DNA of 64,000 nt from NCBI GenBank assembly GCA_038210005.1, contig JBBQXC010000002.1, forward strand, positions 24,911 to 88,910, written 5' to 3'. Below the pieces are notes generated by a model. It did no database searches. It saw nothing but the letters and a program-made list of their open reading frames with translations, and was not told the DNA's origin. This document shows, one piece after another, positions 2,576 to 7,554 of this stretch (position 1 is its first letter; each line of letters starts with the position of its first letter). The translations under genes were made by a program, and so were the position numbers. Origin of the DNA: Gemmatimonadales bacterium (lineage in GTDB: Bacteria; Gemmatimonadota; Gemmatimonadetes; Gemmatimonadales; Gemmatimonadaceae).

Positions 2576-3319
2576 ATGACCTCAACTCTCGGAGCTTTCA
2601 TGCGATTCACACGACACCTTGGCGTAGCAGCCTTGGTATTCAGCGCGATGTCCGCGCGCGCCGAAGCGCAGCTGCCCACGGTTCAGCAGGTGTTCGACAA
2701 CTATGCCACGGCCGTCGGTGGCCGCGACGCGTGGTCGAAAGTGCAAGGACGCAGCGACAAGGGCACGGCGGATATCACGTTCGCCGGCATCTCGGGCACG
2801 TACGAACGCCACAGCGGCGCGCCGAACAAGATGCGCATGATCATCGACCTCGGCATGGCCAAGGTGGATCAAGGCTTCGACGGCACGGTCGGCTGGGCCG
2901 TGCAGCCCATGGGCCAAGCCTCGCGGATGCCTCCCGAGCAGGAGAAGTCACTCGGCGAGTCCATGCAGGTCGGTGCCGCGTTTCTCGATGTGAGCCGGTT
3001 CGCGAAGGCGACCGTCGAGGCGAAGGAAACGTTCGACGACGTGGAGTGCTACAAACTTTCGATCACCTCGAAGCAGGGCGAAGAGCGCACCGAGTATTTC
3101 GAAGTCGCGACTGGCCTCCGCCGGGGCGCCGTCACGAAGTCGCCGATGGGAGAGCAGAAGTCGGTCTTCCGCGACTACAAGGCGTTTGAAGGCAAGCAGA
3201 TCCCGACCAAGATCGTGCAAGTCACACCGCAGGGCGACGTCATTCTCACCACGGCTGAAGTCTCGTTCACGCCTCCCGATCCGTCGCTGTTCAAGGTACC
3301 GGACGGGATCGCGAAGTAA
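2576..3319 (+). CDS. Secreted hypothetical protein, possibly LolA-like or DUF4412-like
   Basis: The ORF has an internal Met followed by a signal peptide (MRFTRHLGVAALVFSAMSARAEAQ). I found no catalytic motifs. Its 3' end overlaps the convergent photolyase gene by 29 bp. Confidence 0.5.
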   Translation: MTSTLGAFMRFTRHLGVAALVFSAMSARAEAQLPTVQQVFDNYATAVGGRDAWSKVQGRSDKGTADITFAGISGTYERHSGAPNKMRMIIDLGMAKVDQGFDGTVGWAVQPMGQASRMPPEQEKSLGESMQVGAAFLDVSRFAKATVEAKETFDDVECYKLSITSKQGEERTEYFEVATGLRRGAVTKSPMGEQKSVFRDYKAFEGKQIPTKIVQVTPQGDVILTTAEVSFTPPDPSLFKVPDGIAK

Positions 3320-5747
3320 CGCGACCCAGCACACGACCGGCCAGCGCGATACCACTCAGCCACGCGCGCTCCACCGACTGGTGCGAGCGCCGCGAGGCGC
3401 CGGCGGCTCCCCAGTCGCCGCACGCGCCTATCCCGCGCGTCTCGTCGAACAGACACGCATCGTCGAGACCCGTCTGCACACGCGCATAGCGCCAGCGATG
3501 CGCGACGGCGTGCACCACGTTGCCGGCGATCTGCAGTTGCGCCCGCAACGCCTCGGACACGAGCGCCGCGATGACCACCGGCTCCTTGTCCACGTGCTCG
3601 GCGCTCCAGTGCCCTTCGCTGTGCACGACCCACGCTTCGTCGCGGCTCCGGCCCGGACGCGCCGATTGGCGCCACGCCCGATGCACGACTGGCGAGTCGG
3701 TGCGCAGCGCACCGCCAATCAGCGATGCGCACACGATCGTGGGCGGCGGCCCGTCGAACACGATCATGCTGCTCCAGCACGGAAGCATGGTCACCCCGGC
3801 CAGCAGCGGGGCCAACGCTGTTGGCTCTTCGAGCATGCTCAGCAGTGCCGAAGCCTGTGGGGCGGGCGTAGCCAGCAGCACGATGTCGGAGTGGTGCTGG
3901 CCACCGTCGCGGTCTGCAACGGCCCATCCTGAGCCCGCACGGGATAGCGCACGGGTGATCGACGCCGCGTGTACACCGGTCTTCACGCTCAGATCGCGCG
4001 CCACATGCTTCGCCAACGCATTCATACCGCCGGTGCCGATGAACTCCCCGTCGTTCACCGCACGCAGCACCCCATCCTCACGCCACGATTCCGAGAGGCG
4101 CGCCAAGCGCTGATCGTCGAGTCGGAATGACGGAGCGCCGTGGTCGAATTGCCAGTGGCCTTCGCGGCGCGTGCTCATGCGCCCGCCCACGCCGCGGCTT
4201 TTGTCGAGCACGGTTACCGCGATGCCGTGATCGTGCAGCGTGCGCGCGCAGGCGAGCCCCGAGATGCCCGCACCGATGATCGTGACGCGTGGTGCTAGGC
4301 CGGCAGAGCGGCTCACGTGTGCCCGATACGCCGGAAAGTTCATGCGCTGCTGGTGCTCGTCGGATCGCCGCGGACGAACAGTCCCGAGTACCGCGACCTC
4401 CGGGGTGAACGGCCGGTCGAACTGTCCCAGGCACCAGAGCAGGCCGCCGAAACTCGCCGGGTCGCGCCCATCCAGTGCGTAGCGATGGTTCAGATCGATC
4501 AGTCGCGCCAGCGCCCCGGCGGCGTTGCGCGACCACATCGGAATGGCCTTGCCCCACGTCATGCGCACGTTGTTGTGCAACTCGCCATGCACGCGGAGCG
4601 ACTGCTGCGCAGCGTCCCAGAGGTCGTCGCCGGTGCCGCTTCGCGCCAGCGTTTCCCACGAGTGCAGAGTGCGGGAGTCCGACTCGTGTCGCGCCAGCGC
4701 CTCCCGCGCCCACCCGGGAATCGCCTCGAGGGTCTCGGGGGCATCGTGCCAATAGCAGAACGCATACGCCAGCTCGCGCCACACCAGCAATTCGTCGAGG
4801 TACTTGTCGGCGCCGTCGCCAGCGCGCGCCGCACATTCCCGCACGATGCGAAACGTCGACACCATGCCGTAATGGAAGTACGCGGACATCCGGCTCACGC
4901 TGTCGATGCTCGCGTCATTGCGCTTGGCGGCGTAGCGATCGAGACGACCCGTGCTCACGAATTCGCGCCATCGCGCGTAGCCGGCCACCGTGCCGCCGGG
5001 CGTGTGCGGCACCGGCGCGACCCCATGGTCGATCTCGCAGCACGCGACCAACGCGGCGATGTCGGCGTCGGCCAATCGCAGCGGTTCGAACGGGAGAGCA
5101 TCCGGTACGAACGGCGGCGTGTGCGCGGCCACGTCGGTCCACGCGGCGGAAACCCGCGCCGCCCGCAAGCCAGCAGTGGCGTCACGAAACGCGAACGCGC
5201 GCGTGTGCACTTTCCCCACCAGTGGCATCGGTACCACGCAGGCGGTATCCACACTCCACACGGGGCAGGTCACCGCCTCGGCCAGCGCATCGGTCAGCCA
5301 GTCGAGTGGCGCGACCGGTAGCGTCTCGGTCACGACCAGCGCAGCGCGATCGGCAAGCGCGCGAAGCGTCGGACCGCGATGCCCGGGGCGCTCGAGATGA
5401 AACGCGTAGCCGATGCCGCGCGCCGCGCACTCCGCCTCGACGTCGCGTGCGCCCTCGAGAATGAAGGTGTGATGCCGGTCCGACGCGAAGGAATACTTCT
5501 CCGACAGCGCGTGATACACGAACACCGGAAGTCCCAATTGCCGGCCAGCGCTCAGTGCGACATCCAACGCCGGGTTCTCATGCGCACGGACTGCCGTTCG
5601 CATCCAGTAGATCACGAAGGCGCCGCCGTCGGGGATCGCAGCGGAGGCCGAGTGGTTGCTGATCCGCTCGGCGAGATGGTCGGGAAAAGCGTCGGGTCGG
5701 AGCACGCTGAACAACGCGCTCCGACCCGATCTCGTGCCAAACACCAA
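3291..5747 (-). CDS. Class II CPD photolyase fused to a renalase-like NAD/FAD-dependent oxidoreductase domain (818 aa)
   Basis: The N-terminal ~480 aa carry class II photolyase signatures: FVIYWMRTAVRAHENPALDVAL, DELLVWRELAYAFCYW, NNVRMTWGKAIPMW...NHRYALDGRDP. After a ~25-aa linker comes a Rossmann motif, VTIIGAGISGLACARTLHDHGIAVTVLDKSRGVGGR, and about 320 aa of COG3380/renalase-like sequence. The reading frame is continuous. The track start is a TTG at 5747; a GTG at 5744 is an alternative. Confidence 0.75.
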   Translation of the reverse strand: MVFGTRSGRSALFSVLRPDAFPDHLAERISNHSASAAIPDGGAFVIYWMRTAVRAHENPALDVALSAGRQLGLPVFVYHALSEKYSFASDRHHTFILEGARDVEAECAARGIGYAFHLERPGHRGPTLRALADRAALVVTETLPVAPLDWLTDALAEAVTCPVWSVDTACVVPMPLVGKVHTRAFAFRDATAGLRAARVSAAWTDVAAHTPPFVPDALPFEPLRLADADIAALVACCEIDHGVAPVPHTPGGTVAGYARWREFVSTGRLDRYAAKRNDASIDSVSRMSAYFHYGMVSTFRIVRECAARAGDGADKYLDELLVWRELAYAFCYWHDAPETLEAIPGWAREALARHESDSRTLHSWETLARSGTGDDLWDAAQQSLRVHGELHNNVRMTWGKAIPMWSRNAAGALARLIDLNHRYALDGRDPASFGGLLWCLGQFDRPFTPEVAVLGTVRPRRSDEHQQRMNFPAYRAHVSRSAGLAPRVTIIGAGISGLACARTLHDHGIAVTVLDKSRGVGGRMSTRREGHWQFDHGAPSFRLDDQRLARLSESWREDGVLRAVNDGEFIGTGGMNALAKHVARDLSVKTGVHAASITRALSRAGSGWAVADRDGGQHHSDIVLLATPAPQASALLSMLEEPTALAPLLAGVTMLPCWSSMIVFDGPPPTIVCASLIGGALRTDSPVVHRAWRQSARPGRSRDEAWVVHSEGHWSAEHVDKEPVVIAALVSEALRAQLQIAGNVVHAVAHRWRYARVQTGLDDACLFDETRGIGACGDWGAAGASRRSHQSVERAWLSGIALAGRVLGRVTSRSRPVP

Positions 5748-5752
5748 CGGGC

Positions 5753-5920
5753 CTACTTCGTCGGCTTCTTCGCGTGTGGCGGCTCAGGCGGCGACTCGGG
5801 CCCGATACCATCCGGATCGAAGTGCTTCTGGTCCGTCAACAGTCTGGTGAATGCCCAAGCCGCGAGGCTCAGGACGAATGTCCAACTGATTGCCATAAAG
5901 GCGATAGCTCCACCGGACAT
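5753..5920 (-). CDS. Small single-TM membrane protein (57 aa), translationally coupled to the upstream SNF transporter; putative small transporter subunit
   Basis: It is below the 60-aa cutoff of the ORF track. I translated it by hand: MSGGAIAFMAISWTFVLSLAAWAFTRLLTDQKHFDPDGIGPESPPEPPHAKKPTK. The ATG shares one base with the transporter TGA (TGATG). A GGAGG lies 4 nt upstream. It has one hydrophobic helix and a Pro/Lys-rich tail. Confidence 0.5.
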   Translation of the reverse strand: MSGGAIAFMAISWTFVLSLAAWAFTRLLTDQKHFDPDGIGPESPPEPPHAKKPTK

Positions 5921-7554
5921 CAGACCTCCGCTCGGTTGGTATCGATCTCCACGAAGCCCTTGCGGTCATCGTAGCCGTTTCGCTTCCATGCCATGCGGAT
6001 CGCGAACAGGAAGCACACGATCATGAGCACGAGAATACCGCGGGAGATCGTGATGAACGGCATGTCGACGTCCGATACCGGATTCGAACTGCCGGCCGAA
6101 CGCTGATTCAACAGAATCGGGATCGCCTCGTCCTTGCCCCACCACGTGAGGATGATGAGCAGGTAGATCGGCGTCACGTACGTCATGATGAACTTGAAGA
6201 TCTTCGGAATCTGAATGTCGGCGCCCATGTGAATCGACTTCCAGGCGTTCTCCGGCTTGAAGATCCAGACGAAGATCACGACCTCGAAGACGGCCACCAG
6301 CACCAGGCCGAACGTGCCGACCCAGTAGTCCCACTCGTCGAGGAACCCGTGGCCGAGCCAGTGGACATGCATCAGACCGATGACGAACGCGAGCGCGCCG
6401 AAGCTCCACGCCACTTTCTCACGCTTGATGCCGAACTCCTCACGGAAGAAGGCCGTGACGGGCATCAGCATGGCCACCGATGACGTGACGCCCGCGAAAA
6501 ACAGAAGACCGAACCACATCACGCCCAGCAGGTTGCCGATGGGCAGCGTCTTGTCGATCTGCTGAAAGACCACGGGCATGGTGGCGAAGCCGAGGTCGAA
6601 CGAGCCCCCCTGGGCGATCTGCATCGCGCCCGCCACACCGAAGAACGTCACAGCGGCGGGAATCGCGATCGAACCACCGAGCACGACTTCCGCCGTCTCG
6701 TTGGTTGCCGCCGTCGCAATGCCGTTCAGCGCGATATCGTCTTTCGTGGACAGATACGACGCGTACGCCTGCAACGAACCCATGCCGACCGACAACGTGA
6801 AGAAAATCTGCCCCGCGGCCGCCAGCCAGATGCCGGGTTGGTTCAAACGTGAAAGATCAGGCTTGTAGATGAACTCCAGTCCCTGTGCCGGTGTGGCACC
6901 GATGCCAGGCTGCGCGGGAAGCGTCAGGACGACGCCAGCGAGCACAATGGCAAACAGGAACAGAATTGGCATGCCGATCTTCGCGAGTTTCTCGATGCCG
7001 CCAGAGATACCTCTCGACAGCACGTAGATGTTGATCAGCAATGTGAAGGCAAAGAACGCGTAGGGCGTGTACGACGCGTGGTACACCGCGCCACCTTCCG
7101 GGGCGAGACCCTGGAACGAGCGGAGGTAGCCGAGCATACCCTCCTGAGTGGTCTGTCCCCAGTAGTCCTTGGTCGCCGAAAAAATGGCGAAGGCCAGCGT
7201 CCAACTCTCGATGTACGTGTAGTAGATCATGACGCCGAGGGGGACCACCATGCCCACGACCCCGAAGTACTTCGCCGCCGGATGTTTCCAGATCGCGGCG
7301 AACATGCCCGGCAGGTGTCCCTTGCGATACCGTCCGCCGTTACGGCCGATGCCCCACTCGATCCACATGAGCGGAATGCCGAGCAGCAGAAGGGCAATGA
7401 AGTACGCGATCATGTACGAGCCGCCACCGTTGGCGGCAGCCTGACGCGGGAAACGGAGGAAGTTGCCGAGACCGACCGCATTACCCGCCATGGCGAGAAT
7501 GAGACCGATACGACTACCCCAAGCTTCGTTCGAGCCGGAGTTGGACGAGGACAA
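5920..7554 (-). CDS. Neurotransmitter:sodium symporter (NSS/SNF) family transporter
   Basis: N-terminal NSS signature WGSRIGLILAMAGNAVGLGNFLRFP. About 12 predicted TM helices. TTG start preceded by GGAG. Confidence 0.85.
   Translation of the reverse strand: MSSSNSGSNEAWGSRIGLILAMAGNAVGLGNFLRFPRQAAANGGGSYMIAYFIALLLLGIPLMWIEWGIGRNGGRYRKGHLPGMFAAIWKHPAAKYFGVVGMVVPLGVMIYYTYIESWTLAFAIFSATKDYWGQTTQEGMLGYLRSFQGLAPEGGAVYHASYTPYAFFAFTLLINIYVLSRGISGGIEKLAKIGMPILFLFAIVLAGVVLTLPAQPGIGATPAQGLEFIYKPDLSRLNQPGIWLAAAGQIFFTLSVGMGSLQAYASYLSTKDDIALNGIATAATNETAEVVLGGSIAIPAAVTFFGVAGAMQIAQGGSFDLGFATMPVVFQQIDKTLPIGNLLGVMWFGLLFFAGVTSSVAMLMPVTAFFREEFGIKREKVAWSFGALAFVIGLMHVHWLGHGFLDEWDYWVGTFGLVLVAVFEVVIFVWIFKPENAWKSIHMGADIQIPKIFKFIMTYVTPIYLLIILTWWGKDEAIPILLNQRSAGSSNPVSDVDMPFITISRGILVLMIVCFLFAIRMAWKRNGYDDRKGFVEIDTNRAEV

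Follow-up and report, generated by a model that had tools for sequence, protein, structure and literature searches.

A class II-like photolyase joined to a renalase-type flavin oxidase in one reading frame: a recurrent fusion found in at least ten phyla

The window analysed here is a stretch of 64,000 nucleotides from the Gemmatimonadales bacterium assembly GCA_038210005.1 (contig JBBQXC010000002.1, positions 24,911 to 88,910 of the forward strand). Its minus strand carries one gene in which a class II-like photolyase for cyclobutane pyrimidine dimers (CPD) continues without interruption into a flavin adenine dinucleotide (FAD) oxidase of the renalase type. The same architecture recurs in at least ten phyla. 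Homology, residue conservation and a structure prediction for the whole chain make it slightly more likely than not that the protein combines two repair activities related to light damage.

One reading frame for photolyase and oxidase

The maximal open reading frame (ORF; 3291..5747, minus strand) comprises 818 codons from a TTG at 5747 to the stop codon at 3291-3293 and contains zero stops or frameshifts. A sequence-only reading of this DNA, made before the present analysis, had described the frame as free of stops and frameshifts at the domain junction, and on reading the sequence it is intact. The same reading had taken the full 818-codon frame, whose start needs correction. In an alignment, 20 close homologues begin at the position of V15 of this ORF (MLRPD...), which makes the GTG at 5705 the likely start, the TTG being only the furthest-upstream option. 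The likeliest gene for the photolyase-renalase fusion is hence 3291..5705 (minus strand) with a product of 804 amino acids (aa), which is also the length of the orthologue in the complete genome of Gemmatimonas groenlandica. Residues of the window protein are given in the 818-codon numbering unless marked otherwise.

Photolyase domain

The class II CPD photolyase domain is located at 4323..5669 (minus strand) and corresponds to residues 27-475. Over exactly this range it is covered by TIGR00591, the model for class II photolyases, practically end to end (profile positions 6-450 of 453, E=2e-82), in agreement with the complete homology region at about residues 1-480 that had been proposed from the sequence alone. 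The score of 277.9 bits stays under the curated cutoff of 550 bits. Judged by its residues and fold, and not by the curated threshold, the window photolyase would be a class II-like enzyme of a divergent subclade. The nearest solved structures are the class II photolyases of M. mazei (2XRY/8OET, E~3e-52) and rice (3UMV, E~2e-38). The AlphaFold model of this half shows the two-domain photolyase fold in full length, with an N-terminal alpha/beta domain and a helical FAD-binding domain, and superimposes on the M. mazei enzyme (MmCPDII) with a template modelling (TM) score of 0.86-0.91 in Foldseek.

The chain numbering of 2XRY equals the native numbering +18, as checked on R256/N257, E301 and W305. 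In native numbering, window residues R276, N277, E319 and W323 correspond to R256, N257, E301 and W305 of M. mazei, W377, R395, M396 and W398 to W360, R378, M379 and W381, and W405, N420 and W438 to W388, N403 and W421. Among 120 family members the equivalents of the CPD-binding R256, N257, E301, W305, M379 and W421 are invariant or nearly so. This also holds for the Asn at flavin N5 (N403, window N420), and the class II Trp triad W381-W360-W388 (window W398, W377, W405) is invariant in 120 homologues. The stretch with these catalytic and electron-transfer residues lies at 4434..4922 (minus strand); they are kept in stand-alone and archaeal relatives as well. Since the whole lesion pocket is kept, the N-terminal domain is best understood as a CPD repair enzyme and not as a sensor alone.

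Compared to MmCPDII, Y380 is replaced by an invariant Thr (T397) and D404 by an invariant His (H421), and Y345 is variable. T397 and H421 were considered as residues specific to the fusion. Both occur in stand-alone photolyases of the subclade too and were consequently rejected as such; they are clade traits.

Renalase-type oxidase domain

The renalase-type FAD oxidase domain follows at 3294..4286 (minus strand, residues 488-818) and opens with VTIIGAGISGLACARTLHDHGIAVTVLDKSRGVGGR, found as quoted in the sequence-only reading. Searches with domain models had been suggested there as a check. With Pfam and NCBIfam, TIGR00591 was matched in the N-terminal half, and Amino_oxidase and NAD_binding_8 from residue 487 on. 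With the single sequence as query, the Pseudomonas renalase 4ZCC aligns over chain residues 5-325 of 336 (E=8e-34). A profile of the oxidase domain (A3), taken from 32 genomes of at least ten phyla, matches 4ZCC at 2-324 against 5-327 (E=1e-112) and human renalase 3QJ4 at 2-314 against 4-332 (E=3e-30). Other amine-oxidase folds (LSD1, MAO, PPOX, L-amino-acid oxidases) are matched by the first ~60 residues only (1-67) with 1e-18 or weaker. At the level of the fold, 4ZCC and 3KKJ superimpose on the domain with Foldseek TM scores of 0.83-0.85 and root-mean-square deviations of 2.6-2.8 Å. The earlier assignment of the C-terminal ~320 aa to the COG3380/renalase-type flavin oxidoreductases is thus borne out by profile, by sequence search against solved structures and by fold.

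In 130 diverse fusions the dinucleotide-binding motif GxGxxG (G492, G494, G497; 4257..4274, minus strand), GGR, the GD motif and the Trp aligned with human W288 are 100% conserved, which in the 804-aa numbering includes W738 and D764. Moreover, 95% of these proteins keep the His and Arg of HRW, and 97% keep the P and Q of PAPQ. In the window protein the renalase signature H750-R751-W752 is encoded at 3492..3500 (minus strand), and in the alignment to 3QJ4 W752 and H709 fall onto human W288 and H245, which we take to be key active-site residues.

Renalases oxidise 1,2- and 1,6-dihydro forms of nicotinamide adenine dinucleotide (phosphate) (NAD(P)), do not act on the normal 1,4-NAD(P)H and are thought to receive their substrates from non-specific redox events (PMC7660482). 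For the Pseudomonas enzyme 2-/6-dihydro-NAD(P) oxidase activity was shown and co-crystals with NADH/NAD+ were obtained (structure titles of 4ZCC and 4ZCD). By analogy to this homologue, the fused oxidase domain most probably acts on the same dihydro-NAD(P) isomers.

Junction and predicted structure of the fusion

The whole 804-aa chain was modelled with AlphaFold2 on the basis of a 130-sequence alignment. The model reaches a mean predicted local distance difference test (pLDDT) of 95.5 and a predicted TM score (pTM) of 0.95. It places the true inter-domain connector at about R480-R487 (4287..4310, minus strand), after the final helix of the photolyase and ahead of the first Rossmann strand, and 111 of 130 family members have a connector of 7-8 residues. 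A linker of ~25 aa near position 4290 had been described previously. Its length does not hold, as most of it belongs to the photolyase's own C-terminal helices: AlphaFold helices span SDEHQQ and FPAYRAHVS, and the TIGR00591 match reaches residue 475.

Given a pTM of 0.95 for two large domains (~460 and ~330 residues), their relative orientation is predicted with confidence and they are predicted to pack rigidly together. A solved structure spanning both domains was not found in a Foldseek search of solved structures. Relative to 4ZCC the renalase domain carries an insertion (7-residue gap) within GAAGASRRSHQS (residues 784-795, window 3363-3398), directly after the GDW motif. This insertion falls on the sole marked internal stretch of low confidence in the AlphaFold model (10-residue block means of 86 and 67).

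Distribution and evolution

Looking for the same architecture in other genomes had been proposed in the sequence-only reading, whose author was unaware how widespread it is. A word-indexed search yielded 120 clusters of ~800 aa with this architecture. When 1.84 billion representatives were scanned exhaustively with phmmer, well over 100 at the 50%-identity level aligned in one stretch over residues 20-810, with matches of this kind reaching down to ~37% identity. Both domains are nearly complete in 216 of the 269 protein clusters retrieved. A genome scan restricted to one genome per species returned 80 loci, and in ~66 of them both parts are contiguous in one frame. Frame changes are found in four loci (L050, L064, L066, L067); a 312-aa ORF in L064 was considered as a renalase and rejected, being a fragment of a DPRP gene.

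The hosts belong to at least ten phyla, including Gemmatimonadota, Acidobacteriota, Rhodothermales, BRC1, Poseidoniales archaea, Myxococcota, Alpha- and Gammaproteobacteria and one Mycobacteriaceae metagenome-assembled genome. Planctomycetota are represented by Pirellulaceae, Planctomycetaceae, Phycisphaerae and Alienimonas chondri. The family is large and extends to abundant surface-ocean archaea and planctomycetes, with G. groenlandica, A. chondri and the gammaproteobacterium Halochromatium glycolicum as cultured hosts.

In the fusions the order is always photolyase, then oxidase. The reverse order, i.e. renalase followed by photolyase, does not occur among the 120 closest relatives of a stand-alone renalase from Asticcacaulis (see below). 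The two halves have correlated pairwise distances (r=0.56, a value reached in 0 of 500 Mantel permutations), and the oxidase half evolves faster, with a mean identity of 37.5% vs 49% for the photolyase half. Only the constancy of domain order and of connector length speaks for a single fusion event. A neighbour-joining tree of the oxidase domains with 200 bootstraps never recovered a clan of fused domains only, and stand-alone renalases are 32-38% identical to fused domains, which share 39% among themselves.

True stand-alone photolyases of the same subclade are present in a Gemmatimonadaceae (L027) and a Melainabacteria locus (L065) and as the proteins P0244 and P0256. Furthermore, the C-terminal domain has decayed in one Myxococcales (L053) and two Poseidoniaceae loci (L072, L076); in L053 the GxGxxG motif has turned into LGDDMAAL. 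All three retain most of the photolyase catalytic residues; L053 carries the exchange N257D, and the Poseidoniales loci carry W305F. Because stand-alone members and lineages with a decayed oxidase keep the photolyase, the latter does not depend on the oxidase, which is the dispensable part.

Some peculiarities of single family members were observed along the way. Four Poseidoniales loci (L071, L072, L074, L076) have a Phe at the CPD-stacking W305 position; the renalase-like domain is intact and very divergent in L071 and L074, and degenerate with broken dinucleotide-binding motifs in L072 and L076. P0264 is a predicted protein of 4593 aa in which the photolyase query matches 14 separate stretches (28% identity). 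This is a giant protein with many photolyase units, unless the gene was mis-assembled or mis-called. Databases label the fusion protein as 'FAD-dependent oxidoreductase' or 'photolyase PhrII'. A stand-alone renalase-like protein of 318 aa from Qipengyuania citrea LAMA 915 (P0477) is named 'deoxyribodipyrimidine photolyase' and 'renalase' by different sources. The former name seems to be a mistake of annotation that may have spread from fused relatives.

Stand-alone renalases and light regulons

A protein 95% identical to the crystallised Pseudomonas renalase (P0270) is encoded on the same strand as, and directly upstream of, the genes for RudS (TudS+DUF1722), a MerR/B12 LitR-type regulator and the class I photolyase PhrB. 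After PhrB the locus continues with SnoaL, SDR, COG2907 amine oxidase, DUF1365 and CFA/UfaM synthase genes. The same layout of renalase, RudS, LitR and PhrB is seen in P. tohonis, P. xionganensis and P. poae, giving four Pseudomonas species in total. In P. mendocina a light-induced transcript of nine genes begins at the RudS gene, the promoter of which contains two operators T(G/A)TACA-N12-TGTA(C/T)A (PMC9758184). As this transcript starts at the RudS gene, the renalase gene lies outside of it.

In six of six loci from the four species, the start codon of the renalase gene is preceded at 47-55 bp by a match to the LitR/PplR-type operator, which is exact in three and has one mismatch in the other three. 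Apart from it, only the two known sites are matched per Pseudomonas locus of 13-17 kb, and the chance expectation is 0 (shuffles of two 17-kb loci). Since the operator match is present upstream in all six loci, the characterised Pseudomonas renalase is predicted to be light-induced. No paper stating such an induction was found in the literature searched. The operator (L081 7930-7953; L084 7923-7946; L087 5931-5954; L088 5928-5951) lies in the intergenic region between the renalase gene and the divergent genes for Epimerase+DUF1731 and ferrochelatase, and these divergent genes are perhaps light-induced too.

The other stand-alone renalase-like proteins considered are 31-40% identical to 4ZCC. 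On a plasmid of Asticcacaulis sp. DW145 (L089 5989-8095) the renalase-like gene overlaps by 11 bp with a gene for a 390-aa protein with FAD_binding_7 only, followed by DUF3429. By its domain content the 390-aa protein is a short photolyase-like protein devoid of the N-terminal alpha/beta domain, and the pair is an unfused counterpart of the fusion that involves another member of the photolyase family. In Burkholderia the renalase-like gene is convergent with an unannotated FeS-BCP photolyase gene, in a context that also comprises MerR, a class I photolyase, CFA synthase, DUF2256 and GTP cyclohydrolase I. On the B. anthina plasmid (L091 7011-8560, minus strand) the FeS-BCP/DPRP gene, located between the renalase-like gene and MerR, is missing from the gene table of PLSDB and falls into two overlapping ORFs, possibly because of a frameshift in a pseudogene or because of a sequencing error.

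Further renalase-like genes adjoin DUF3429 and a sigmaE-ChrR pair in Rhizobium, folE, DUF3429, SDR and DUF2256 in Sphingobium, a rhodopsin and a Blh gene in Polymorphobacter, and MsrA in Qipengyuania. No light or photolyase context was seen in the Paracoccus, Deinococcus and Sphingomicrobium loci. Taken together, stand-alone renalases are frequently associated with genes of the photolyase family or of photo-oxidative stress, and this association involves several photolyase classes and is not universal. A link between photolyase and COG3380 genes in light- or singlet-oxygen-induced operons, put forward in the sequence-only reading, largely holds, with Pseudomonas, Asticcacaulis, Burkholderia and Rhizobium in its favour and the three genera without such a context as exceptions.

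Among other genes that recur near stand-alone renalase-like genes is one for an ABC1/UbiB-family kinase (L089 9794-11116, L090 488-1804, L094 6912-8267), which in Paracoccus overlaps the renalase stop codon. DUF3429 and DCC1-like/DUF393 genes recur as well (L089-L092, L097).

Genomic neighbours of the fusion

Clustering of all ORFs of the 80 fusion loci into families identified PF04244 (DPRP, the FeS-BCP/(6-4) photolyase family) as the commonest neighbour with 19 loci. It is followed by SDR (13 loci), Fpg/Nei glycosylase (9), DUF2256+DUF3253 (6) and NmrA+DUF2867 (6). In L009, L024 and L056, additional paralogues of photolyase are encoded next to the fusion. The fusion loci are an ultraviolet (UV) repair neighbourhood. 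A recurring FolE family was not found in the 80 loci. The cluster 'unknown 199 aa' among these neighbours was rejected as a gene, since it only shadows DPRP genes on their antisense strand.

Comparison with known systems

With MmCPDII (2XRY/8OET) and the rice enzyme (3UMV) the window photolyase shares full-length homology, fold, Trp triad, N403 and the CPD contacts. Unlike the solved photolyases, the window protein bears a C-terminal flavoenzyme of 330 aa that is predicted to be rigidly packed. The oxidase shows end-to-end homology and a common fold with the bacterial renalase (Pseudomonas phaseolicola/syringae 4ZCC, 4ZCD, 3KKJ), to which it is ~37% identical, and both contain the motifs DKxRGxGGR, PAPQ, HRW(R/L)YA, GDW and VEGAxLSG. 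Bacterial renalase and fusion family are both linked to light-response genes. They differ in that the window oxidase is fused to a photolyase, whereas the Pseudomonas protein stands alone with 328 aa. Human renalase (3QJ4) is matched by the profile in full length and is ~21% identical; it is eukaryotic, of disputed physiology and without a light link.

The set of photolyase, SDR, DUF2256, FolE, CFA/UfaM synthase and renalase-type genes is common to the LitR (PplR/PmlR) regulon of Pseudomonas and the alphaproteobacterial sigmaE-ChrR clusters. Those systems consist of separate genes with a known light-responsive regulator, whereas the fusion gene of the window yields one polypeptide and has neither a regulator nor a light cluster in its vicinity.

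By their description in a preprint, photolyases of the PhrSph98 type (Sphingomonas sp. UV9) are class II-like proteins with a PHR2 domain, as is the case here. PhrSph98 is reported to be a bifunctional CPD/(6-4) enzyme, and its relatives are treated in the same work (Fernandez et al. 2022, bioRxiv 10.1101/2022.06.29.498140). The legend of Figure 1 in that preprint lists a COG3380 domain among the BLAST relatives of PhrSph98. In its outlying nodes 13-14 the position of Y389 is occupied by Thr or Leu, which matches the invariant T397 of the fusions. Nodes 13-14 were set aside there as non-true homologues, and the fusion was neither mentioned nor interpreted. Apart from the COG3380 icon in this one figure, no paper describing a photolyase-renalase fusion or combining both in a meaningful way was found in the literature searched, consistent with the earlier statement that no described fusion of this kind was known. 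Both domain families are known, and public databases contain the architecture with machine annotation; the fusion itself is undescribed in the literature searched.

Interpretation

Our preference, slightly beyond an even balance, is for a bifunctional enzyme of light-damage repair with two flavins and two independent activities on one chain. In the N-terminal domain, blue or near-UV light would excite FADH-, which in turn would split cyclobutane pyrimidine dimers in DNA. The C-terminal FAD oxidase would return aberrant 2- and 6-dihydro-NAD(P) to NAD(P)+, if the substrate of the Pseudomonas homologue applies here as well. Such aberrant dihydronicotinamides are expected when NAD(P)H is exposed to UV-A or singlet oxygen or is drawn into stray one-electron reactions. 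The fusion would guarantee co-expression, and both halves would presumably serve the same response to light or photo-oxidative stress. Shared regulation is favoured over obligatory coupling because the photolyase persists without the oxidase and because renalase pairs with several unrelated photolyase classes. Several points weigh against this preference. A pTM of 0.95 and a fixed connector of 7-8 residues point to a rigid, selected interface in the model, which is needless for co-expression alone. An oxidase that produces H2O2 looks hazardous as part of an enzyme bound to DNA. Of the 130 fusions, 73% have His and 17% have Gln at the position that aligns with human H245. Finally, there is no other light-cluster gene or light regulator within the 64-kb window, and the Gemmatimonas fusion gene follows a gene for an SNF transporter.

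Because the interface is rigid in the model and the connector is fixed, readings with a functional contact between the two domains stay alive. That the protein is a self-contained photorepair machine, the domains of which exchange electrons or cofactors across a fixed interface, we regard as doubtful and still worth serious attention. Either the renalase flavin would keep the repair flavin reduced in aerobic cells, or it would remove NAD(P) radicals or isomers made by the photolyase; if such an exchange takes place, it would reveal the long-sought in vivo reductant of photolyase or the physiological source of renalase substrates. The electron-transfer variant, in which the renalase FAD is reduced by a nicotinamide cofactor and re-reduces the oxidised or semiquinone photolyase FAD via a surface Trp chain, is rather unlikely, a little more so than exchange in general, and would solve the in vivo reductant problem for photoactivation. 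The model (pTM 0.95, pLDDT 95.5, connector of 7-8 aa) implies a fixed inter-domain geometry, the order is always photolyase then oxidase, and the Trp triad is invariant. According to Ignatz et al. 2018, as cited in PMC12723161, NAD(P)H drives class II photoreduction only to the FADH radical, so that a missing helper is conceivable. However, photolyases with most catalytic residues persist where the oxidase was lost or degraded, stand-alone renalases pair with class I, FeS-BCP and short photolyase-like proteins of differing electron-transfer geometry, and normal 1,4-NAD(P)H is not a substrate of the characterised renalases (PMC7660482). Removal of by-products on the spot is clearly improbable. 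Here NAD radicals or non-1,4 isomers would arise from photolyase photochemistry or from one-electron quenching of its Trp radical by NAD(P)H and be cleared by the fused renalase, which would account for the tight fusion as well as for the pairing of renalase with photolyases of several unrelated classes. It would also fit the interaction of NAD(P)H with class II photoreduction (PMC12723161) and the origin of renalase substrates from non-specific redox events (PMC7660482). Nevertheless it is entirely inferential, and several stand-alone renalases have no neighbour of the photolyase family.

Even less probable is an oxidase acting on a reduced pterin or folate, e.g. for an antenna chromophore, in place of nicotinamides. 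FolE and SDR genes next to stand-alone renalases in Sphingobium, Rhizobium and Burkholderia and the membership of folE, folX and folM in the Pseudomonas light regulon (PMC9758184) would be in line with this, but the Pseudomonas enzyme is a demonstrated 2-/6-dihydro-NAD(P) oxidase with NADH/NAD+ co-crystals and no FolE family recurs near the fusions. A photolyase-like domain that works as a cryptochrome-type light sensor and switches the oxidase on is lower still in our estimate: it would agree with the rigid interface of the model and with the divergence of the subclade (278 bits in TIGR00591 vs a cutoff of 550), yet the equivalents of the CPD-binding R256, E301, W305, M379 and W421 are invariant, which is needless for a pure sensor, stand-alone members exist and the neighbours are DNA-repair genes. 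Practically negligible is an artefact of assembly or a pseudogene fusion of two adjacent genes. The four related loci with frame changes could be taken in its favour, but the frame is intact here, identical architecture and synteny are found in the complete G. groenlandica genome, and hundreds of independent assemblies contain the fusion. Its recurrence in frame refutes the assembly artefact about which the sequence-only reading had been concerned.

For renalase itself, the fusion, the Pseudomonas operator and the sigmaE-ChrR and photolyase neighbourhoods point to light and photo-oxidative stress as the setting in which it would act and 2-/6-dihydro-NAD(P) would arise; a paper tying renalase to either was not found in the literature searched. 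With regard to photolyase flavin reduction in aerobic cells, a second flavoenzyme that is predicted to be rigidly docked is a concrete candidate partner.

The locus in Gemmatimonas

Window proteins are 82-88% identical to Gemmatimonas proteins. Synteny with the complete G. groenlandica genome extends over arginine decarboxylase, AIM24, S9 peptidase, DUF502, amidohydrolase, the SNF transporter, a 54-aa ORF, the fusion, a 239-aa gene and M3 peptidase. Identity and synteny together mark the window as part of a Gemmatimonas chromosome. Upstream of the fusion, the gene for the SNF-family sodium-dependent transporter (5920..7554, minus strand; Pfam SNF on the syntenic G. groenlandica gene) is possibly co-transcribed with it. 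In between lies an ORF for a hydrophobic membrane protein of 55 aa (5753..5920, minus strand), the counterpart of the 54-aa ORF called in G. groenlandica. Its ATG overlaps the TGA of the transporter gene (TGATG) and its stop is separated from the GTG at 5705 by 47 nt. The product probably serves the transporter as a conserved small subunit or as a partner protein. At the other end, the 3' end of a convergent 247-aa gene (2576..3319, plus strand) overlaps the 3' end of the fusion gene by 29 bp (3291-3319), and the same overlap of 29 bp exists in G. groenlandica (L086 12387-12415).

A scan for promoters and terminators around the fusion gene gave nothing above chance and no sigma-70-like promoter. 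A paper on G. phototrophica reports two light-induced photolyases. In G. groenlandica a gene for an ABC1/UbiB-family kinase is located ~8 kb from the fusion (L086 20405-21835).

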